Made by a program: the position numbers and the translations under genes. From a virus (taxonomy: Duplodnaviria > Heunggongvirae > Uroviricota > Caudoviricetes), in the IMG/VR virus record IMGVR_UViG_2541047596_000003: a DNA stretch of 64,000 bases. The stretch is one strand, 5' to 3'. The notes beneath the pieces were generated by a model, which ran no database searches, was not told the DNA's origin, and saw only the letters and a program-made list of their open reading frames with translations. This document shows, one piece after another, positions 4,654 through 58,895 of this stretch (within the stretch, counting starts at the first letter, position 1; every line of letters begins with the position of its first letter).

Positions 4654-5889
4654 ATGTCTAAATTACCAACAGGTGTCGAGATTAGAGGTAGATACATTCG
4701 CATCTGGTTCATGTTTCGAGGAAAACGATGTCGGGAAACATTAAAAGGCTGGGAGATTACAAACAGTAATATTAAAAAGGCCGGAAATTTAAGAGCGCTG
4801 ATAGTTCATGAAATAAACTCCGGTGAATTTGAGTATTTAAGACGTTTTCCCCAGTCCAGCACTGGGGCAAAAATGGTGACAACGAGAGTCATAAAAACGT
4901 TCGGAGAGCTTTGTGATATCTGGACAAAAATTAAAGAGACAGAGTTAACAACAAACACAATGAAGAAAACGAAATCACAATTAAAAACACTCAGAATAAT
5001 AATTTGTGAAAGTACCCCGATATCACATATTCGTTATAGCGATATCTTAAACTACCGGAATGAACTGCTGCATGGAGAAACGCTTTACCTGGATAATCCA
5101 AGATCCAACAAAAAAGGAAGAACCGTGCGCACAGTTGATAACTATATCGCCCTGCTCTGTTCGCTATTGCGTTTTGCGTATCAGTCGGGATTTATATCAA
5201 CCAAACCATTTGAAGGAGTAAAAAAATTACAGCGAAACAGAATAAAGCCTGATCCGTTATCTAAAACAGAATTCAATGCATTAATGGAAAGTGAAAAAGG
5301 ACAGAGCCAGAACTTGTGGAAATTTGCCGTTTACTCAGGACTTCGTCACGGGGAACTGGCAGCTCTGGCGTGGGAGGATGTGGATCTCGAAAAGGGAATA
5401 GTGAATGTCAGAAGAAACCTGACGATACTTGATATGTTCGGTCCCCCAAAAACAAATGCCGGGATCCGAACAGTAACACTACTGCAGCCTGCTCTTGAAG
5501 CACTGAAGGAGCAATACAAACTGACCGGGCATCATCGCAAAAGCGAAATCACCTTTTATCATCGGGAGTACGGCAGAACCGAAAAGCAAAAACTGCATTT
5601 TGTTTTCATGCCCAGGGTGTGTAACGGAAAACAAAAACCTTATTACTCGGTAAGCAGTTTGGGGGCAAGGTGGAATGCAGCAGTAAAACGTGCTGGTATT
5701 CGCCGCCGTAATCCGTACCATACGCGGCATACTTTTGCCTGCTGGCTGTTGACGGCAGGAGCGAACCCGGCATTTATAGCCAGCCAAATGGGGCATGAAA
5801 CTGCGCAGATGGTGTATGAAATTTACGGTATGTGGATTGATGACATGAACGACGAACAGATAGCCATGTTGAATGCGCGGTTATCGTAG
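4654..5889 (+). CDS. intR: Tyrosine integrase IntR (411 aa)
   Basis: 411-aa ORF with C-terminal R..HTRHT..Y tyrosine-recombinase motifs; adjacent to ttcA. Confidence 0.9.
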   Translation: MSKLPTGVEIRGRYIRIWFMFRGKRCRETLKGWEITNSNIKKAGNLRALIVHEINSGEFEYLRRFPQSSTGAKMVTTRVIKTFGELCDIWTKIKETELTTNTMKKTKSQLKTLRIIICESTPISHIRYSDILNYRNELLHGETLYLDNPRSNKKGRTVRTVDNYIALLCSLLRFAYQSGFISTKPFEGVKKLQRNRIKPDPLSKTEFNALMESEKGQSQNLWKFAVYSGLRHGELAALAWEDVDLEKGIVNVRRNLTILDMFGPPKTNAGIRTVTLLQPALEALKEQYKLTGHHRKSEITFYHREYGRTEKQKLHFVFMPRVCNGKQKPYYSVSSLGARWNAAVKRAGIRRRNPYHTRHTFACWLLTAGANPAFIASQMGHETAQMVYEIYGMWIDDMNDEQIAMLNARLS

Positions 5890-12578: not shown

Positions 12579-12824
12579 ATGAAAAAACTAATTGTTGCTT
12601 GCATCTTATCAGCTCTGTCTTTTGGTGCTTTTGCTTCTGTAAATTCGACAGATAAGAGTGATGCTGGCACTGCTCAATATGGTGATACTGGCCTTGATAA
12701 CCAACGTTCGAGTTATTTCAATACTGACTCATGGAAAGAAAAACAACTACAAGGTAAAATTATTGACAGTGAATGTAATTTACCTATCCATTTTTCTGGT
12801 GTAAATGATGGGTGTAAAAAATAA
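12579..12824 (+). CDS. Small secreted protein, moron (about 82 aa, signal peptide)
   Basis: Opposite strand to tail genes; MKKLIVACILSALSFGAFA signal-like N-terminus; RBS AAGGTGA; followed by terminator. Confidence 0.5.
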   Translation: MKKLIVACILSALSFGAFASVNSTDKSDAGTAQYGDTGLDNQRSSYFNTDSWKEKQLQGKIIDSECNLPIHFSGVNDGCKK

Positions 12825-19054: not shown

Positions 19055-19759
19055 TCAACCCACCTTGCTCGATCCTGGGAAACATGAAATTGGTAACGGA
19101 TTCGGGCGCGGGAAACGTAAACGGCAACCGCTCAGGCGGTGGCTGCATTTATCCAGCTTTGGATCGCTGGTCGATTCGTCTTTATCAGTAGCTACAGGGC
19201 CGCCACTGTATCCGCAACCGTCGCCGCGATATTGCCATTGGCAAACGTCAGCAAGGATTGTGCGCCCTGGGATAACCGCCTTGTCAGCATCAATTGGCGT
19301 TGACAGCTCATATTGCACCTGGTCGGCTGTTTCTTCGCTCATCGCCTCAACGACGTAAAAAGACACCGCCTCGATAGACGGATCTGCATCCGGGTTGCCG
19401 TTGGGGAAGTTGATGGCGTCCAGGTATTTTACTTCCACCTGGCGGCGTGTAACTTTCATTCCTCGCAGGTCGTTGAAATCGTTATTCATCCCGGTGATTA
19501 GGCCGCCAATGTTGGCTACAACCATTTGCGGGCGTGAATAGACACCCTCGTTTTTCATTTCGAAGCCAGTGGCCTCGATAGGGTAGCTGTTGTAAGCCAC
19601 CCCCTTCCAGATAACCGGGCCGTAATAGCCATTCACGCCGGAATGGAAGCGGATAACCTCGCCACCCAGGGGCGTGAGGTCTAATTCAAACAAGTCAATT
19701 ACCGCGCCGACTCCGGCATCGACGGAATCAATAATCATTTCTCTCGGAATATTGCGCAT
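19055..19759 (-). CDS. Minor tail protein L-like (234 aa)
   Basis: Strong similarity to recalled lambda L (..VIPGR.ILA..C.W.YRGD.CGYSG.. CxxC region). Confidence 0.8.
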   Translation of the reverse strand: MRNIPREMIIDSVDAGVGAVIDLFELDLTPLGGEVIRFHSGVNGYYGPVIWKGVAYNSYPIEATGFEMKNEGVYSRPQMVVANIGGLITGMNNDFNDLRGMKVTRRQVEVKYLDAINFPNGNPDADPSIEAVSFYVVEAMSEETADQVQYELSTPIDADKAVIPGRTILADVCQWQYRGDGCGYSGGPVATDKDESTSDPKLDKCSHRLSGCRLRFPRPNPLPISCFPGSSKVG

Positions 19760-19888
19760 TTTCTCACCTTGTCATTCTGTGATCTGCGTCACGCTAAATC
19801 ATACCAAAATGGATTGATCGCGGTTTTTACAATATGTATATTTTACTCAAACGGAAGCATAGTTAACAAAATGGCGCGGAGGTGCGTT

Positions 19889-20077
19889 ATGACTGAAAAG
19901 CTATGGAAGTTGACGGTATTCATGACAGACGGTAGGGAAAAGGTTATCGCCCTGTATGACGACGAGGGTGAAGCATTGGTTGACGCGCTTTTACTTGCTG
20001 AGGATGACCGCCTTTTGGGATACCAGATCGAACCTGTCAAATATGAGGCTAACAAAAATGAAAAAATACAGTCTTGA
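19889..20077 (+). CDS. Hypothetical small protein, moron gene 1 (62 aa)
   Basis: ATG 19889 preceded by GGAGGTG; opposite strand to tail operon; paralogous to the next gene. Confidence 0.45.
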   Translation: MTEKLWKLTVFMTDGREKVIALYDDEGEALVDALLLAEDDRLLGYQIEPVKYEANKNEKIQS

Positions 20078-20405
20078 TGTGTGGTTAAGTGGTAGCAAGG
20101 AGTGTTTCGGATTATTTGATAGCGAAGAAGTAGCCCTGGAAGAAGGCAGGATTCTTGAATGTAGTTTAGGCCATCCAGTGAAATATGCTGCTAATCCGGT
20201 ACAGATAGTTGATGAGGTGGAAGATATGAACCCGAAAGATATTAATGGTAGCTTCACTGCTTATTATGCAGATTCTATGGACCAGTCTTGCCCTGGTGAA
20301 ATACACGCAAAAGGTTTCCCGGCTGACGATCCAGAAGCAAAACGCGAATACGAAAAAGCGGCGAAAGATTTCTGTATCGATAACCTTTCAGCATTCGATA
20401 AATAA
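20058..20405 (+). CDS. Hypothetical protein, moron gene 2 (115 aa), paralog of gene 1
   Basis: ATG 20058 with GAGG RBS; shares the ...L.V..(T/S)...E....L.D.E..AL... and PVKY.AN motifs with the upstream gene. Confidence 0.45.
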   Translation: MKKYSLDVWLSGSKECFGLFDSEEVALEEGRILECSLGHPVKYAANPVQIVDEVEDMNPKDINGSFTAYYADSMDQSCPGEIHAKGFPADDPEAKREYEKAAKDFCIDNLSAFDK

Positions 20406-20414
20406 GGCGGCAAC

Positions 20415-20663
20415 ATGGGGCGGCGCAATCACGGTGATTATGTGTACACGTTGAAACAGGCCGCCCGCCTCATCGGTTATCATGAACACGAATTTATTGA
20501 TTTGCTGATTGAGCGCGGGATACTGTACCAGGTCTGTTTAACGCTGTACCCGAAAGCGAAATACCTACATGAAAAGTTATTCATCATCATGACGGATGAA
20601 AACCAGGTTAACCATTCATTCGTCACTGATAAGGGCGTTAATTATCTGCGTGATAACTTATAG
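20415..20663 (+). CDS. Hypothetical protein with HTH-like segment, moron gene 3 (82 aa)
   Basis: ORF immediately after gene 2; YTLKQAARLIGYHEHEFIDLLIERGIL resembles an excisionase/MerR-type HTH. Confidence 0.4.
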   Translation: MGRRNHGDYVYTLKQAARLIGYHEHEFIDLLIERGILYQVCLTLYPKAKYLHEKLFIIMTDENQVNHSFVTDKGVNYLRDNL

Positions 20664-20796
20664 GTGACTGATTATAAAAATAGAAGTTTTGGCGCTAATA
20701 ATAATGGGGTTGATAGTATTTGGCGTTCATGCTGTAGATCTGGACTGGAAAACGATAGCAGAAAATATAGCATTAATGGAAATAGAATAAAAATAA

Positions 20797-20813
20797 CCCC
20801 GCTTCGCGCGGGG
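20797..20813. terminator. Hairpin terminator between M unit and moron cassette
   Basis: CCCCGCTTCGCGCGGGG hairpin flanked by A-run and T-rich tract. Confidence 0.45.
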
Positions 20814-20819
20814 TCGTGT

Positions 20820-21017
20820 TTATACGCCATCAACCAAAAATAAAACCTCCTTCCCTTCCCGGGATCTACACCCAACGTACCCATCACCAACGTCGTGAAG
20901 ATACCATATATCGCCGTTGTCAGCTTTTACAGTAAGGTCGTTGATCTCATAGTCGTCAAACAATGTAAAAGCGTAAGTTTTGTCAACTACACAAGTCCCG
21001 TACATAACAACCCCCAT
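20820..21017 (-). CDS. Hypothetical small protein translationally coupled to M (65 aa)
   Basis: ATG overlaps the M stop codon (TAATG); followed by terminator hairpin. Confidence 0.45.
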   Translation of the reverse strand: MGVVMYGTCVVDKTYAFTLFDDYEINDLTVKADNGDIWYLHDVGDGYVGCRSREGKEVLFLVDGV

Positions 21018-21370
21018 TAGCCAACAACTTGCTCAAACGTTGCGTTTAGCGTGTACAAAGGCCCGTCTTTAGTCATGCTCCATTGCCGACAGACAAAAAG
21101 CCTTTGCACGTTATCCATTGACGGCGACCAGTAAAAAGCCTCGACCGCGCCGCGCGCCCTCAAGAATGCTTCCGCCTGGATTGCTACGTTTCCACCATCA
21201 CCACATCCGGCGCTACTGCCTTTAAACACCAGGGTGTAGCTATCAAGCAATGGATTGATACCTTTTACCTGTCTTTGCTCATAACCATCGCCCAGCTTAA
21301 CAACAGATACGTCTGGCTTCCTGGTCACGCTGTAGCTTCTTTGCGGCGTCCATCTGAACACTTCCGGCAT
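21017..21370 (-). CDS. Minor tail protein M-like (117 aa)
   Basis: Similarity to recalled lambda M (FRW.P.....V...GDGY.QR...G.N; C-terminal FEQVV). Confidence 0.75.
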   Translation of the reverse strand: MPEVFRWTPQRSYSVTRKPDVSVVKLGDGYEQRQVKGINPLLDSYTLVFKGSSAGCGDGGNVAIQAEAFLRARGAVEAFYWSPSMDNVQRLFVCRQWSMTKDGPLYTLNATFEQVVG

Positions 21371-21537: not shown

Positions 21538-21693
21538 ATGAAACGCTATGTAGTAGTAATGCTAAATAACGCATTCGAACAAGTGGAAATAGCAATCGTT
21601 AAGGGTTTCGACGACGCATTCAAATACGGTCAATTCATGATGAATGCGAAAGAAGATGAATACCGGGACTTCTTCCTGAAGGCACTTAACTAA
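21538..21693 (+). CDS. Hypothetical small protein, moron (51 aa)
   Basis: ATG at 21538 with AAGGAGG 6 nt upstream; not in the ORF track (under 60 aa). Confidence 0.5.
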   Translation: MKRYVVVMLNNAFEQVEIAIVKGFDDAFKYGQFMMNAKEDEYRDFFLKALN

Positions 21694-21710
21694 GGATGAT
21701 GGGGTGAGTT

Positions 21711-21965
21711 ATGAAACTGGTAGCGATTGACAGAAATCTGAAAGCACAGAAAAACGCACAGGACCGGATCATCAAGAAAGGTAAGGAATTACTTAAAGCC
21801 TTTCTGAGAAAAGAAGTTTACCCCAAAAAGTTACGCGACGGTTACGGATACAAAATGGATATCAATCTTGATTGGAGGCTGTTTAGCGAAGATTTGAAGG
21901 TTTGGTTAATTGTTGAGCACCATGCCTATAACAAGTTATGTGGCGTGAAAGGCACTCATAAGTGA
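21711..21965 (+). CDS. Hypothetical protein, moron (84 aa)
   Basis: ORF 17 nt after the previous gene with GGGGTGAG RBS; followed by terminator. Confidence 0.5.
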   Translation: MKLVAIDRNLKAQKNAQDRIIKKGKELLKAFLRKEVYPKKLRDGYGYKMDINLDWRLFSEDLKVWLIVEHHAYNKLCGVKGTHK

Positions 21966-22026
21966 GTCGAGATATTCGAAAGGGGATATATCGCGCGGAA
22001 TGGTCGTTTATAAATACGAAAAATAA

Positions 22027-22045
22027 CCCCGGCATTGCACCGGGG
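22027..22045. terminator. Bidirectional terminator after tape-measure gene
   Basis: CCCCGGCATTGCACCGGGG hairpin with flanking A/T runs on both strands. Confidence 0.55.
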
Positions 22046-22051
22046 TTTAGT

Positions 22052-24521: not shown

Positions 24522-25181
24522 ATGAAACGGTTAGCAAAAGTGGCAATGATTGCGGCGGTATTGGGTCTGGTTGGTTGCAATGAGGATAATGAAAAAGCGC
24601 CTATAGTGACCACTCAAGAACAACAAGCATTAGCAGAGAAAAATGCTAAATGGCTTGCAGAACAACAAGCAAAACAAGCCGCATATGAGGCACAGTTAGC
24701 AAAAGAAAAAGCTGGTAAACAGTGGCTTGTGGTCGAAAGAAAAGATGATATGCAGGACACAAAAAACGTGTTCCTTTTCGTGAAAGCAGAACATTTCAGC
24801 GGAAGTCTTGATGCTTTCCCTACACTGAAAGCACGGGATGAAAACAAACCTGTATTAACAATCGCTTGCCAGGGTAATAAAACAAAAATGTTCGTAGCAT
24901 GGTCAAACCATGTAACTGACGCTGGGGACACTACTTATATTAACTACCGGATCGGCGATCACAAAGCTGTAGCTACTGAATGGAGTCGGTCAACTAACTA
25001 TAAAGCTCTTGGATTATGGAACGGCAAAAAAGCCATTCCAATGATTAAAAAACTGGTTAACGAAAAACAATTTATCATTGAAGTAGTGCCGGAAGCTGGC
25101 GACATTGAGAAAGCAGTGTTTAACATTGATGGTCTTTATAACCACATCGACAAAGTGAAAAACGCTTGCAACTGGAATTAA
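24522..25181 (+). CDS. Lipoprotein, moron (219 aa)
   Basis: Lipobox LVGC after signal peptide MKRLAKVAMIAAVLG; opposite strand between tape measure and tail chaperone genes. Confidence 0.6.
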   Translation: MKRLAKVAMIAAVLGLVGCNEDNEKAPIVTTQEQQALAEKNAKWLAEQQAKQAAYEAQLAKEKAGKQWLVVERKDDMQDTKNVFLFVKAEHFSGSLDAFPTLKARDENKPVLTIACQGNKTKMFVAWSNHVTDAGDTTYINYRIGDHKAVATEWSRSTNYKALGLWNGKKAIPMIKKLVNEKQFIIEVVPEAGDIEKAVFNIDGLYNHIDKVKNACNWN

Positions 25182-25190
25182 GGGTGAAAC

Positions 25191-25511
25191 ATGAAACGCG
25201 ATGAATGGATGAGAAAATGGGAACATAAACAAGTAGCATATAATCGCAAGATGAACCGCGAATTTGACTTCGGTGTCGCAGAGCGTGATTGTGGGTATAA
25301 AGGAAATCTAAATGGTGCATATGTTCAACATGTTGGCGATAAACAGTATTATTACATTGTCAACTTCAACCATGTATTGCACGCAGATCTGGTTGTTATT
25401 GATGGGAAAACAAAAATAGTAGCGAATAAACGCATTAATAAGAACGCAGCAATCAATATATTAACAGTGATTCGCACCCAGATGAATGTGCTTTACGAAA
25501 AAATAGCATAA
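25191..25511 (+). CDS. Hypothetical protein, moron partner (106 aa)
   Basis: ORF 10 nt downstream of lipoprotein gene; followed by terminator. Confidence 0.45.
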   Translation: MKRDEWMRKWEHKQVAYNRKMNREFDFGVAERDCGYKGNLNGAYVQHVGDKQYYYIVNFNHVLHADLVVIDGKTKIVANKRINKNAAINILTVIRTQMNVLYEKIA

Positions 25512-45311: not shown

Positions 45312-46039
45312 TATTCACCCCGTGTCACTCGTTTAATTTCGTTATCAGCCCGCGCCTCTTCTTTGAACAATTCAGTAATGGCGTCTTCATAGAAAGCACG
45401 GTATTTCTTCCACCACGTTGATCGGCTTACCGGAAATACAAGCTGATTAACCGCACGCCGGACAAGATCTACAGGGAAACGCGAGTACCCGCGCCCGCCG
45501 CAGTGCTGGCACGTTTTGAATACTGGCATTTCCGCCGCTTCGCTGGCTGCTTTATCCGGTACTTCGCCACGCCCCTTGCACCTCTGGCAATGGTTTTTAA
45601 CGTAGCCTTTGCCGTTGCACCGCGAGCAAACTGTCGATGTGTATTCACAATATGGATTCGGTAAAAGCCCGTTACCTCCGCACTTAGGGCAAACCTTTTC
45701 GGTAGCCGCACTTTGGCAGTAATCCCGAAACGCGAAAACGGCAACAAGAATAATAAGATCATTGCGTTGTTCTTCATTTAATTCCATCACGTATTCGTAA
45801 TCTTTCGCCATAGCCCTTAAACGCTCTGTAAGCAAAATTACGGCCCTGTGTTTTTCAGCTTGCGATAGCTCCATTTTCCCTAAAAAAGCACTATAGCCAA
45901 GCTCTACGCGCGATTGCGCCATACCAGCGGCGGTAAGCGCATCCGTCGTATTAAGTGCATCCGGGGATGTTCCCCGGCTTTCGTCTGATAATCGCGGTGA
46001 TTTGGGAAAGTGGAATTTCAGAATGGATTCTAAATTCAT
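45311..46039 (-). CDS. Cys-rich protein with four CxxCxGxG zinc-finger motifs; possible Q-type antiterminator (242 aa)
   Basis: CPKCGGNG, CSRCNGKG, CQRCKGRG, CQHCGGRG; position just downstream of rusA as in lambdoid nin-Q regions. Confidence 0.45.
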   Translation of the reverse strand: MNLESILKFHFPKSPRLSDESRGTSPDALNTTDALTAAGMAQSRVELGYSAFLGKMELSQAEKHRAVILLTERLRAMAKDYEYVMELNEEQRNDLIILVAVFAFRDYCQSAATEKVCPKCGGNGLLPNPYCEYTSTVCSRCNGKGYVKNHCQRCKGRGEVPDKAASEAAEMPVFKTCQHCGGRGYSRFPVDLVRRAVNQLVFPVSRSTWWKKYRAFYEDAITELFKEEARADNEIKRVTRGE

Positions 46040-46221
46040 TATTTGCCCCCATAGCGAGCAATAAGGCGTTTGCGATCAGAAATGGTTTGCACCAGTTTTC
46101 TTTCAAGCTCTTTCAGCGCAAGTAATTCCTGCATGTGAAAAGCCTGGATTCGTCTGACTGTCGCTAAATCATGCTCGTCACGTTGAACATCTATTTGCAG
46201 ATCTTTAATTTCGTTTTTCAT
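46039..46221 (-). CDS. Hypothetical small coiled-coil protein (60 aa)
   Basis: ORF coupled between rusA and the Cys-rich gene. Confidence 0.4.
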   Translation of the reverse strand: MKNEIKDLQIDVQRDEHDLATVRRIQAFHMQELLALKELERKLVQTISDRKRLIARYGGK

Positions 46222-46625
46222 TGCTCACCCCACATATTAGTCGCATATTCGTTAATATCCGGTAGCAGGTCGCCGCGTTCGCATACCTTAATAAACAATC
46301 GCCCGCCTTTTACCTTCCGGCAGCGGACAATTTTTATTGAGTCGATTTGCCCATCATCATTCCAGAATCCGGCACAAGTAAGGCTGTCAAAAAGGCATTT
46401 TGGGATATTATCAAGATCTCTGACCCGGTTATCCGGCGGCGCGGCATAAATGGCGATTGCCAGTCGGCAAGATAGGTTAATGTCTAAATTTAATAATTCG
46501 ATGATGTCTTTTACTTGTTCCCGGTATTCCTTCCCCACTTCGCTGATATAGTGAAAACCTCGTGAATGTCGGTAATATCGGTTATTAGATGGCGGGTAAG
46601 GTAGGCTAAATGTATACTCGTTCAT
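46218..46625 (-). CDS. rusA: Holliday junction resolvase RusA-like (135 aa)
   Basis: PYPPSNNRYYRH motif and D..D.....K..FD.L....FW.DD pattern as in RusA. Confidence 0.8.
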   Translation of the reverse strand: MNEYTFSLPYPPSNNRYYRHSRGFHYISEVGKEYREQVKDIIELLNLDINLSCRLAIAIYAAPPDNRVRDLDNIPKCLFDSLTCAGFWNDDGQIDSIKIVRCRKVKGGRLFIKVCERGDLLPDINEYATNMWGEQ

Positions 46626-51136: not shown

Positions 51137-51757
51137 TTAATGCAGTACACGTTTTTCCTGTTCATGAATAGGCTGTGCACTTTTCATTGCTTCGTTAAGC
51201 GTAGCTATAGCCGCCTGTACGCCGAATTCATTAGCGCGCATATCATCGCCAACAAATTTTCCGTAAAGCACCGGAATAAACGCCTTAACGTTCACTTCTT
51301 CGTGTCCTTCCTCAATAAATTTCTGCAACATCTTAACCTCAAAGACCTTTTTCATCAGGCCGCGCATAGAATGCAGTGAAACACTGCCAAGCAGATCCTT
51401 GTTCAACGGGAAAATAACAGCACTTCCGAACGCGAGCGGATCAACATCTTCCGGCACTGGTGCGCGTCCGAATTCCTCCTCCATGCGTCTTACGAAAGTG
51501 AGGCAGAACACATAACGCGCTACCGATGTTTTTTCTTCCATGCTTAAAGACACGTAATCGCGGATTGATGCATTCATCATAATATCGACAATCTGTAGCG
51601 CCAGATTTAAGTCACTGTCATACACTCCTGCTTCCATATCTTTTAAAACTTCGTGATAATCCTTAGTTACCACTTCGTGAAAGCTCGCGTCCTCTGTGTA
51701 GCGAGTAATTAACATGCCTTCGCTGCCGAGTGAATAAGCCGTTTTGATATTGTTCAT
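51137..51757 (-). CDS. Hypothetical protein (206 aa)
   Basis: ATG 51757 with AAGGGT RBS, 12 nt after upstream stop. Confidence 0.45.
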   Translation of the reverse strand: MNNIKTAYSLGSEGMLITRYTEDASFHEVVTKDYHEVLKDMEAGVYDSDLNLALQIVDIMMNASIRDYVSLSMEEKTSVARYVFCLTFVRRMEEEFGRAPVPEDVDPLAFGSAVIFPLNKDLLGSVSLHSMRGLMKKVFEVKMLQKFIEEGHEEVNVKAFIPVLYGKFVGDDMRANEFGVQAAIATLNEAMKSAQPIHEQEKRVLH

Positions 51758-51768
51758 AATATTTACCC

Positions 51769-52101
51769 TTATAGTGGATGATGCCATTTCATTTCAGTTT
51801 CTGAATTAAACGGGTTTCCTTCGCTTGAAAGGAATAAATCACGCTCCCGTTTCAGTTCTTCCGGGCTTATTTCTATTTCATCAATCTGACCGAACGATCC
51901 AGGCATCATCCGTTTTAAATCGGATAGCGGACGCATAAGGCCGCAGCCACGTAACAGCATGTCTATAGCGAATTGTCTACGCCCTGCTGCATCATTAAAG
52001 CGACGCGCCCACGGGACACACACAATCCGGCGTTCGAACTCAATAAATAGTGATAGCTTGTTAGTCTGACTATCATAGGCCTTATGTAATTTAATTTTCA
52101 T
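51769..52101 (-). CDS. Hypothetical protein
   Basis: ORF-track ORF, operon strand. Confidence 0.4.
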   Translation of the reverse strand: MKIKLHKAYDSQTNKLSLFIEFERRIVCVPWARRFNDAAGRRQFAIDMLLRGCGLMRPLSDLKRMMPGSFGQIDEIEISPEELKRERDLFLSSEGNPFNSETEMKWHHPL

Positions 52102-52282
52102 TTAACACCTCAACATATTGTTCAAGATGCCATCTCCCCACCTCATCATCTTCCTCATCAAATAATATTACTTGACCACCAGGCAAAAAAGAAAAGGCAG
52201 CTATAATAAACTCATAGCCATACCAAGTGCGGATCTTCTCACCGCCTTTCAGGTGTTTTACTTTCACTAATTTTATAGCCAT
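52091..52282 (-). CDS. Hypothetical protein
   Basis: ORF-track ORF, operon strand. Confidence 0.35.
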   Translation of the reverse strand: MAIKLVKVKHLKGGEKIRTWYGYEFIIAAFSFLPGGQVILFDEEDDEVGRWHLEQYVEVLNEN

Positions 52283-52545
52283 ACGCCGTACATCCCATTC
52301 AGCCCGGCAAACAATTTCCGCCAGTGGTCTTCAACATAATCCCGGAACGGCTTAACGCGAACATTGCGGGCCTTCAGTTCAATCTTGTCAAAGAAACGAG
52401 GCTCAATAATCGTTCCATCCAGATATTTAACCAGGATCGGGCGCTCAAGATCGTTATATGTCTTGTTCAGCACAACCAGACCAGGGTCGCTACGATATTC
52501 TGGCAAAACAACAAGATCGCCATCTTTTGCATTCCAAGTAACCAT
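52273..52545 (-). CDS. Hypothetical protein
   Basis: ATG 52545 overlapping upstream tiny-ORF stop (TGATG). Confidence 0.4.
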   Translation of the reverse strand: MVTWNAKDGDLVVLPEYRSDPGLVVLNKTYNDLERPILVKYLDGTIIEPRFFDKIELKARNVRVKPFRDYVEDHWRKLFAGLNGMYGVWL

Positions 52546-52664
52546 CACATCGCCCCTTTACAAATAAAGCTAATCACCGCAGCAAGTGCGCCGCAAAACA
52601 CAATCGTAAACAGGAAACAAATAACGCAAAAAGCGACCCTTACAATATTCTTGCAAACCTTCAT
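52545..52664 (-). CDS. Tiny hydrophobic peptide (38 aa)
   Basis: MKVCKNIVRVAFCVICFLFTIVFCGALAAVISFICKGAM; coupled to neighbours. Confidence 0.35.
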   Translation of the reverse strand: MKVCKNIVRVAFCVICFLFTIVFCGALAAVISFICKGAM

Positions 52665-52667
52665 AAC

Positions 52668-52787
52668 TCACCCCAACAATGCAACAATTAATTCAGCAAT
52701 AAAAACGGCGACATAAAAAGAAGCTGTGATATAAATCACCCCAATAACGAAGGCGGCGGCTAATGCCGCAATTTTTACCATGCTCAT
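52668..52787 (-). CDS. Tiny hydrophobic peptide (39 aa)
   Basis: MSMVKIAALAAAFVIGVIYITASFYVAVFIAELIVALLG; ATGA overlap with upstream stop. Confidence 0.35.
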   Translation of the reverse strand: MSMVKIAALAAAFVIGVIYITASFYVAVFIAELIVALLG

Positions 52788-53023
52788 TTATCAGCCTCCG
52801 CAATGAACTTATCAAGCCATTTGTTATTGGCCAGGCGTTCGGCATCTTCGCCAAATGTTTTACGTTCGCTTAATTCCTTGCGCGTTGGCATAGGCCATTT
52901 ATCGTGCCACCCGGCAGACGTTTCGAACTCATACAGGCCGCCGTTAAAAGTGACATAGTCATCAGATGAGTCAGGCAGCTCTTTATCAACATCTTTTTCT
53001 TCGATCATGATTTGATACCTCAT
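52784..53023 (-). CDS. Hypothetical protein
   Basis: ORF-track ORF, operon strand, coupled. Confidence 0.4.
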   Translation of the reverse strand: MRYQIMIEEKDVDKELPDSSDDYVTFNGGLYEFETSAGWHDKWPMPTRKELSERKTFGEDAERLANNKWLDKFIAEADK

Positions 53024-54365: not shown

Positions 54366-54481
54366 TTAATCTCCCGTGCTGTTAACACTATGTATAAGGC
54401 TTTATTCGCGGCGCTCCACATTTCGGCATCGTGAAGCATTTCCGCTACTGCCAGTTTGAATTGAAGCGCCTGAATAACCAT
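54362..54481 (-). CDS. Tiny ORF coupled to erf (39 aa)
   Basis: ATG 54481 with GGAG RBS; stop overlaps erf start. Confidence 0.3.
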
Positions 54482-54511
54482 AATGTCATCTCCGGATGTT
54501 TACATTTTGTA

Positions 54512-54802: not shown

Positions 54803-55281
54803 AATCTGATCTCCGTATATCCTTGATGATACTTAATAAAAAATCATCTTCGTTAATTGCCGCACTTCCAGCGGCTGACCAGATTGTTAATGAGCGGCTT
54901 AACATCTTTCAACTAATCCCGCAATCATCGCCGTTCCCGGCGTGACCTTGCTCACTCCAAGCAAGCTGACTCGTCGCCTTGCGTGCGGTTTCGTGGGGGA
55001 TGTAACGCTTTAAACACCCCATGCGCCTTGTTATCAGTGCCGCTTTCGGTCCCCCATCGGGGAGTTACTCCACGGTTGACAAGGTGTTAAGCCTGATTTT
55101 TAAAGTGCCAGGAAGTTGCTTTTGTTACCTGCGCCCTTCCTTTGACTCGCAATATACGCCCCGTAAAACATCGAGTCAATCCATTTTGTATACTTTTTTA
55201 AAATATTTTATATGCCATTGATATTTAAATAATAAATAACGTTTTCTGTTTACGTTTTGGTGTTTTCCAGGCAAAGAAAAG

Positions 55282-58862: not shown

Positions 58863-58895
58863 ATATACAAAATGTAAACCGGAGGATATAACATT

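Follow-up and report, generated by a model that had tools for sequence, protein, structure and literature searches.

The 64,000-nucleotide stretch of DNA analysed here (IMG/VR record IMGVR_UViG_2541047596_000003, in the following the window) carries between the tail genes M and L a small group of genes that are oriented against the tail operon and that we refer to as the M-L cassette. The 1,258 bp of this region match the chromosome of Escherichia coli M1/5 to 100% and are 84.7-88.8% identical to seven temperate phages (mEp021, mEp554, mEp013, mEp010, mEp044, mEp515 and MagusPhagus). By its sequence, the host element is a member of the published mEpimmI (mEp021-like) group, namely the prophage of M1/5. 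Negrete-Mendez et al. 2025 described this group and reported its members to match lambdoid phages in frequency among E. coli from human faeces (PMC11893012). According to the RefSeq annotation the prophage has a size of ~54 kb, reaches from ~10.3 kb to past the window end and encodes its entire set of head and tail genes on the minus strand. The features of the M-L interval are given below in window positions; ratios of nonsynonymous to synonymous polymorphism (pN/pS) are Nei-Gojobori estimates from 25-38 distinct alleles.

19055-19759, minus strand: tail gene L (Pfam PF05100 Phage_tail_L, E = 9e-72; pN/pS 0.07)
19778-19792, no strand: CRP-like dyad TGTGATCTGCGTCAC, half-sites invariant in 36 relatives
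19803-19842, plus strand: predicted promoter P_A, ACCAAAATGGA, with TTGATC as -35 hexamer (19814-19819), 17 nt and TATATT as -10 hexamer (19837-19842) (promoter scan)
19840-19869, minus strand: leftward promoter-like site facing L, TTGTTA-18-TAAAAT (promoter scan)
19862-19875, plus strand: invariant GTTAACAAAATGGC block between the predicted transcription start and the ribosome-binding site of g1
19889-20077, plus strand: g1, 62-amino-acid acidic protein (phrog_29559; pN/pS 0.37)
20058-20405, plus strand: g2, 115-amino-acid acidic protein (phrog_38567)
20415-20663, plus strand: g3, 82 amino acids, stand-alone KilAC (ANT) protein (Pfam ANT)
20668-20790, plus strand: g4 remnant, reading frame of a single-pass membrane peptide, equivalent to the mEp554_102 annotation (frame translation, tblastn)
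20795-20815, both strands: two-way intrinsic terminator hairpin (terminator scan; -16.3 and -17.7 kcal/mol, z -2.4 and -2.8)
20820-21017, minus strand: o65, acidic reading frame of 65 amino acids (phrog_3249, E = 1.5e-22; pN/pS 0.16 from 27 distinct alleles; isoelectric point 4.2)
21017-21370, minus strand: tail gene M, minor tail protein (Pfam PF05939 Phage_min_tail, E = 1.2e-27; RefSeq 'phage tail protein'; pN/pS 0.12)

M, the 65-amino-acid open reading frame (ORF) coupled to it, the terminator hairpin and the three plus-strand genes g1 to g3 are all found where the original prediction, made from the letters alone, had placed them; the coordinates of the genes are those of the ORF list and, o65 excepted, of RefSeq. 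The ATG of o65 overlaps the TAA of M by one base (TAATG), which points to translational coupling; the ORF has no RefSeq annotation in M1/5 and is annotated in mEp021 and mEp554. A ribosome-binding site, GGAGG, is present 7 nt upstream of g1, the overlap of g1 and g2 amounts to 20 nt, and g2 and g3 are separated by a gap of 9 nt. The earlier reading had passed over a fourth small ORF, g4. In relatives it encodes a single-pass membrane peptide of 38-45 amino acids (MKIEVLALI.MGLIVFGVHA.D.DW..IAEN) that is conserved in 31 related loci with 76-100% identity (tblastn). The start codon of the window copy has changed from ATG to ATA, and g4 may be inactive here or may use an internal TTG or ATG start. 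An ORF of 59 amino acids with a GTG start (20664-20843) was dropped in favour of the conserved g4 frame. PHROG families were found for all five small genes. The GC content of the cassette is 0.37-0.45 compared to 0.50-0.55 in the flanks, and the GC skew is reversed. An Rfam scan of 12-26 kb of the window gave nothing relevant.

The intergenic region between L and g1 was aligned for 36 distinct relatives. Near-invariant in this alignment are the hexamers TTGAT(C/A)-17-TATATT (19814-19842), the ACCAAAA(T/C)GG block directly against the -35 hexamer of P_A, and the GTTAACAAAATGGC block ahead of the g1 ribosome-binding site. In the dyad TGTGAT...TCACG (19778-19792) the half-sites are kept and the centre is free to vary, as is the coding sequence of g1. 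Since the half-sites are fixed while the centre varies, we read the dyad as a candidate dimer-bound site; it resembles a CRP site and is located ~64 bp upstream of the predicted P_A start, within a possible leader of L. The pattern TGTGA-N6-TCAC occurs at five sites of the window compared to 0.49 expected, all of them intergenic in the prophage. These CRP-like dyads (TGTGAT-N4/5-ATCAC), at 19778, 41139, 47540, 51118 and 52725, are mostly located beside a copy of ACAAAATG and could be sites for the host CRP or for a phage-encoded regulator. A short imperfect dyad, TTTACAATATGTATA, is also present near P_A. The -10 hexamer of the leftward site overlaps that of P_A by 3 bp and its -35 hexamer falls within the GTTAACAAAATGGC block; the P_A region may be a two-way promoter that serves both the cassette and L. 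It had been proposed that L resumes behind its own motif-bearing promoter. The motif is indeed there, and the site is better read as the cassette's own or as a two-way promoter than as one of L alone. At the other end of the cassette, the hairpin scores as a terminator on both strands, with a good U-tract on the minus and a weaker one on the plus strand. It is the predicted meeting point of the convergent M-o65 and cassette transcripts and is annotated as TERM_11/12 in mEp021.

For the distribution of the cassette, 80 loci were gathered from IMG/VR using protein L, and genes were placed by tblastn. The close relatives are the 41 loci in which L is at least 85% identical and the gap is covered. 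g2, g3 and o65 are present in 40 of them, and the C-terminal part of g2 and g3 co-occur in 40 out of 40; one locus (L037) lacks g1 and has kept g2, g3 and o65. In a second sample, comprising 5,426 complete E. coli genomes, 35 have a tail module of the window type and 34 of these have the cassette, strain MS 21-1 being the exception. The remaining close relative, L032, is a 53.9-kb viral contig in which M is followed by 128 bp and then by L, with o65 and the cassette gone. Codon ~5 of o65 is fused to TTTGTTAAC, an invariant block that lies shortly before the ribosome-binding site of g1, and on this sequence L032 is a clean deletion via a short TTGTTA repeat. The M-L gap of MS 21-1 is 124 bp; its J and M proteins and those of the neighbouring island (B1, B2) are identical to the window, and the structural genes are all intact. 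The cassette is near-fixed and rarely lost, with one deletion type that also takes o65, and the presence/absence polymorphism that had been anticipated among related prophages was not borne out. Because the deletions in L032 and MS 21-1 leave the module otherwise intact, the cassette is not required for keeping the rest of the prophage intact.

A related lambdoid group of 36 loci (L ~71% identical) shows the M-L junction in other states. M and L are contiguous (gap 45 bp) in 20 loci, and the remaining 16 have inserts of 300-1,300 bp and of differing content, usually a small ORF after M and at least one ORF on the opposite strand. As 16 of 36 related loci hold different inserts at this place, the M-L junction is a general insertion hotspot. 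A typical insert among the loci L055-L085 consists of a small ORF that overlaps the M stop codon and a convergent opposite-strand ORF, which has, for instance, 268 amino acids in L067 and 154 in L085. Within the mEpimmI relatives only the internal cargo varies: some have an ORF of 77-81 amino acids between g2 and g3 (mEp021_72), a split HNH endonuclease, or ORFs of 58-67 amino acids after g3. The split HNH homing-endonuclease gene was seen between g2 and g3 in locus L014 (2882-3354), and an intact HNH homing-endonuclease gene is located between I and J in the mEp021 record (45958-46524).

The description of g1 to g3 as a self-contained, oppositely oriented trio between tail genes that are adjacent in relatives is in agreement with the 20 contiguous loci and with the two deletions. 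The designation as a moron holds in part: low GC content, a predicted promoter conserved in 36 relatives, a predicted terminator of its own and the hotspot junction fit, and a sporadic distribution does not. From these sequence features we conclude with high confidence that the cassette is an autonomous accessory operon and does not consist of tail genes. The predicted own promoter and terminator would make it independent of the antiterminated late tail transcript.

The pN/pS values of g3 (0.13), the C-terminal part of g2 (0.11), o65 (0.16), g1 (0.37), the N-domain of g2 (0.44) and the g2 linker (0.60) are low, and g1, g2, g3 and o65 are therefore protein-coding genes under purifying selection. 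Compared with the tail genes (L 0.07, M 0.12, K 0.13), g3 and the g2 tail are constrained equally, whereas replacement-site change in g1 and the N-domain of g2 is three to four times faster. Over the mapped loci of relatives, identity is 44-100% for g1, 56-100% for g2 and 88-100% for g3, the most conserved gene of the cassette. g2 is composed of a hypervariable N-domain (beta-beta-alpha-beta, ~50 amino acids), a variable linker and a near-invariant C-terminal segment of ~45 amino acids (…SMDQSCPGEIHAKGFPADDP…FCIDNL…) with two fixed cysteines and one histidine in the alignment. Among the aligned alleles the C-terminal segment is of one type, the linker of two and the N-domain of at least five. 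In the AlphaFold2 model of g2 the N-domain has a predicted local distance difference test (pLDDT) score of ~88, and the C-terminal part, with one helix, scores below 60 and is poorly defined; fold matches for the model are weak.

g1 and g2 are restricted to the mEpimmI-group lineage. Their homologues form 20 and 58 clusters, respectively, exclusively from E. coli, and a profile search of 1.84 billion representatives for remote homologues of g2 gave 13 matches, all from the same lineage or fragments. Both proteins have an isoelectric point of 4.4, with net charges of -6.5 (g1) and -12 (g2), and none of the M-L cassette proteins has a signal peptide. Some g1 alleles are labelled 'transporter' by NCBI, which is a misnomer for soluble, acidic proteins of 51-62 amino acids. 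The proposal that g1 and g2 are paralogues is weakly supported for g1 and the N-terminal part of g2 (BLASTP E = 7e-5 over 52 residues; profile-profile E = 0.0015 at a probability of 17%); the string PVKY.AN, which had been taken as shared, is limited to the window's own g2 allele type.

g3 matches the Pfam ANT/KilAC family PF03374 with 29.4 bits (gathering threshold 25.3), its residues 10-82 covering profile positions 23-105 of 108. The predicted structure is a winged helix, a helix-turn-helix followed by a beta wing, and superposes on the DNA-binding domains of MerR and Xis. The former label, an excisionase-like helix-turn-helix, is thus apt for the fold (MerR/excisionase-like) and not for the family, which is KilAC. 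Outside the group, g3 matches the C-terminal KilAC parts of Rha/Ant antirepressors alone, with 32-38% identity; since an N-terminal AntA/AntB, Bro-N or pRha domain is absent, g3 is not a full-length antirepressor. A sequence search of the PDB gave no match, and a scan of species-representative genomes gave no relative of g3. A KilAC gene is listed among the mEpimmI core genes in a manual analysis, and the supplementary tables of the same paper have no entry for the cassette proteins (PMC11893012). Activities are on record for KilAC and related domains elsewhere. In Listeria AriS, the KilAC domain suppresses the SOS response and prophage induction, and the phage-specific activity is carried by the N-terminal domain (PMC9043618). 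CreP of Acinetobacter baylyi, a stand-alone KilAC protein of 103 amino acids, acts as a bacteriostatic toxin by blocking division of the cell (bioRxiv 10.1101/2024.01.05.574328), and the KilA domain of phi11 Gp07 is reported to keep a growth-inhibitory activity in E. coli (PMC5944126).

The trio is uncharacterised, as had been stated: PADLOC and NCBIfam gave no matches, g1 and g2 fall into PHROGs of unknown function, and public annotation lists hypothetical proteins. PADLOC returned no family for any of nine island proteins (cassette and sibling islands, see below) at E <= 0.1, NCBIfam matched neither g1-g3 and o65 nor any other island protein, and toxin or antitoxin matches for g1-g3 were found neither in Pfam and NCBIfam nor in PADLOC. 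Ipe, the haemolysis-inducing protein of mEp021 lysogens, was considered as a product of the cassette and rejected since it is encoded elsewhere; no ORF between 34 and 54.6 kb of mEp021 has in-frame starts that match at least three of the four reported lengths (83/82/77/72 amino acids).

The cassette is not alone. Plus-strand islands break the tail module at four junctions, the M-L cassette included, and all four have a low GC content. The three siblings are:

12579-12824, plus strand: island between side fibre and J, 81-amino-acid protein with a signal peptide
21538-21965, plus strand: island between M and tape measure, 51-amino-acid protein and 84-amino-acid basic ParE-like toxin (Pfam PF24732, E = 9e-12)
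24522-25511, plus strand: island between tape measure and DUF6246, 219-amino-acid VasI/TagO-like lipoprotein (PF11319, E = 1.7e-16; …LGLVGC) and 106-amino-acid basic protein

Judged by sequence, the two proteins at 21538-21965 are a probable toxin-antitoxin pair. This island is closed by a two-way terminator at 22025-22047, in which AAAAATAACCCCG is common to the cassette terminator, and its mEp021 counterpart is larger (gp65-gp68). In mEp021 all four junctions likewise carry islands. The one between J and the side fibre (51741-52894 of the mEp021 record) encodes gp80 and gp81, and gp81 is Lpp021, a lipoprotein that was shown by experiment to exclude superinfecting phages (PMC11893012). For at least one sibling island, an accessory role thus has experimental support.

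The cassette (P_A) and the two islands that flank the tape measure gene (P_B, P_C) have a promoter design in common, t(t/a)tACAAAATGG(a/c) followed by a -35-like hexamer, 17 nt and TATA(T/A)(T/A). A near-consensus leftward promoter at 55189(-), just downstream of the repressor gene, follows this design as well. For the motif (t)(t/a)tACAAAATGG(a/c), with its palindromic variant TACAAAATGTA, 13 intergenic matches at <=3 mismatches were counted in the prophage compared to 1.55 expected; its positions include 19803, 19866, 21459, 24438, 24471, 41099, 47500, 47572, 51078, 51102, 55189, 55989, 56032 and 60012. In several cases the motif stands directly against the -35 hexamer, and the repressor gene and the cro-like gene have two inverted copies between them. 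The ACAAAATGG-type motif, at about -42, may be bound by an activator or a repressor. An explanation of ACAAAATG as a plain -35 element or a start-codon artefact was rejected: some copies are true start codons (28550, 32445), and the island copies are located directly upstream of -35 hexamers. Three early genes (58867-58900, 60003-60036, 54480-54510) have a near-identical leader, (ACAAAA/CCATTT)TGTAAAC(AT)CCGGAG(G)-N9-AT(T/A)ATG, which looks like a duplicated translation-initiation cassette. Outside the mEpimmI prophage, a DUF1627 gene and tyrosine integrase fragments (RefSeq pseudogenes) beside ttcA (5531-5889) look like what is left of a different prophage at ttcA.

For the function of the cassette we tentatively favour, with a probability of roughly 0.42, a moron-type antisense operon in which g1 and g2 are variable inhibitors or effectors and g3 is a constant regulator. 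Transcription would start at the cassette's own sigma-70-type promoter (TTGATC-17-TATATT), proceed towards M and end at the two-way terminator. g1 and g2 would be acidic cytoplasmic proteins whose N-domains diversify as inhibitors of changing targets such as host defence or components of competitor phages, and the C-terminal tail of g2 together with g3 would form the constant part. g3 presumably binds DNA and sets the expression level of the operon, as Aca regulators do in anti-defence operons, and the g2 tail may contact a conserved partner, possibly g3. The order of the genes, variable small genes (g1, g2) followed by a conserved helix-turn-helix gene (g3) in one operon, is the one known from Acr-Aca loci. 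We infer the timing of expression, the DNA binding of g3 and the inhibitor role of g1 and g2 from sequence and from analogy. Several points weigh against this interpretation. P_A was recognised by a consensus match and by conservation, and no clear inverted-repeat operator was found near the cassette promoter. To our knowledge KilAC is not an Aca family. Near-fixation (~97%) would be unusual for anti-defence cargo, which is normally turned over, and the pN/pS values of g1 and the g2 N-domain are below 1, numbers that relaxed constraint and recombination of old alleles would equally yield. Finally, the activities published for KilAC are inhibition of SOS and arrest of growth and do not include autoregulation (PMC9043618; bioRxiv 10.1101/2024.01.05.574328).

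These published activities lead to the alternative that survives best, although we consider it unlikely, namely a module akin to toxin-antitoxin or abortive-infection systems. Here g3 would be an effector that arrests growth or division and is held by the g2 tail, and the g2 N-domain and g1 would be sensors or decoys for phage or stress. Bacteriostasis by the stand-alone KilAC protein CreP (bioRxiv 10.1101/2024.01.05.574328) and the growth inhibition reported for the phi11 Gp07 KilA domain (PMC5944126) fit such a role of g3. The arrangement of small upstream genes, a 9-nt gap and a tightly coupled g3 is like that of antitoxin-toxin operons. The g2 C-terminal part and g3 are equally constrained (pN/pS 0.11 and 0.13) and always found together (40/40 loci), the low-confidence prediction for the g2 C-terminal part is as in segments that fold upon binding, and the adjacent island codes for a ParE-like toxin pair. 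However, PADLOC gave no match, g3 shares just 32-38% identity with antirepressor KilAC domains, and its likeness to CreP is one of domain and size. The clean cassette deletion left no g2 behind, which we regard as neutral evidence.

Decidedly unlikely is a secondary lysogeny-control region like immI of P22, with g3 as an antirepressor- or AriS-type modulator of the prophage repressor or of RecA/SOS that is tuned by g1 and g2. The suppression of SOS and prophage induction by the AriS KilAC domain (PMC9043618), the Rha/Ant antirepressor C-termini as nearest non-group relatives of g3, the KilAC gene as a core gene of the group (PMC11893012) and a P_A-type promoter module just downstream of the repressor gene, 55189(-), speak in its favour. 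Yet g3 is devoid of the N-terminal AntA/Bro/Rha domain in which the phage-specific activity of AriS resides. Moreover, the repressor is ~96% conserved in the group, so that the hypervariability of g1 and g2 would not be accounted for, and the deletion variants persist as prophages.

A sensor-effector system is, in our view, very unlikely. The g2 N-domains and g1 would recognise invader or host-defence proteins, the g2 tail would hold g3, and released g3 would arrest division or SOS or would switch transcription; the four islands would be one regulon via promoters with ACAAAATGG abutting the -35 hexamer and CRP-like dyads, possibly tied to lysogeny. Hardly credible is that the genes are tail-assembly or structural accessories that happen to be on the other strand: their near-universal presence between M and L and the conservation of g3 and o65 like tail genes would suit it, but the opposite strand, the low GC content and the predicted promoter and terminator of their own do not, gp70-74 of the mEp021 record are without the 'structural' label that gp69 and gp75 have, all tail genes are intact in L032 and in the MS 21-1 prophage in which the cassette is missing, and M and L are adjacent in related lambdoid tails. 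It had been reasoned originally that an invariant cassette co-transcribed with the tail genes would imply such a structural role; the cassette is near-invariant, and the predicted transcription does not agree with co-transcription.

We return to the moron-type operon with variable g1 and g2 and constant g3. A moron-type unit at a tail-gene junction as a kind and the KilAC gene as a core gene were already known. New are the near-fixation with one deletion type, the pairing of an invariant stand-alone KilAC protein with a g2 of variable-N/constant-C architecture, the g4 ORF that had been passed over, the promoter design common to three antisense islands and the fourth island at the J/side fibre junction. 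The cassette belongs to the core of phages that are common in faecal E. coli, and it has no assigned function. With a natural clean deletion, a culturable carrier (mEp021) and a sharp evolutionary pattern, a constant KilAC protein and g2 tail with swappable N-domains, it is a tidy test case. Solving it would provide a role for stand-alone KilAC proteins in enterobacterial phages and would tell whether the islands of the tail module are co-regulated; if the variable domains are specificity determinants, the cassette would represent a new defence or counter-defence module.

Lambdoid morons are promoter-gene-terminator units between late genes, such as lom and bor of lambda or the morons of HK97, and are reportedly a concept of the Hendrix and Juhala work. 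The cassette is like them in that it separates tail genes which relatives have side by side, in its lower GC content, in a promoter-like site and a terminator of its own, in the probable absence of a structural role and in a junction that takes up other inserts. It differs in having four genes instead of one, in its antisense orientation to the late operon and in its near-fixation, and the tail module holds three further islands, two of them with the promoter design of the cassette. Acr and other anti-defence operons contain a conserved helix-turn-helix regulator, Aca. Small acidic variable proteins upstream of a conserved small helix-turn-helix protein, a packed operon, a strong-looking promoter and optional small ORFs are common to both, whereas the cassette is near-fixed, the KilAC protein g3 is not of a described Aca family, and neither an inverted-repeat operator nor similarity to anti-defence proteins was found.

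With CreP, AriS and Gp07 the comparison is one of domain and size: g3 is a single KilAC domain of 82 amino acids, CreP has 103. CreP, however, is repressed by a CRISPR effector instead of being combined with protein partners, and AriS and Gp07 are two-domain proteins. The immI region of P22 (mnt-arc-ant) is located in the late gene region and encodes Ant, a full-length antirepressor under the control of Arc and Mnt, basic ribbon-helix-helix proteins. Both it and the cassette are antirepressor-related regulatory regions with own promoters among late or tail genes, but the cassette has the KilAC domain only, and its partner proteins are acidic and not DNA-binding-like. The Lpp021 island, finally, is a sibling antisense island of the same tail module (J/side fibre) with an accessory function established by experiment; Lpp021 is a lipoprotein and acts from outside the cytoplasm in blocking infection, in contrast to the M-L cassette proteins with their lack of signal peptides.

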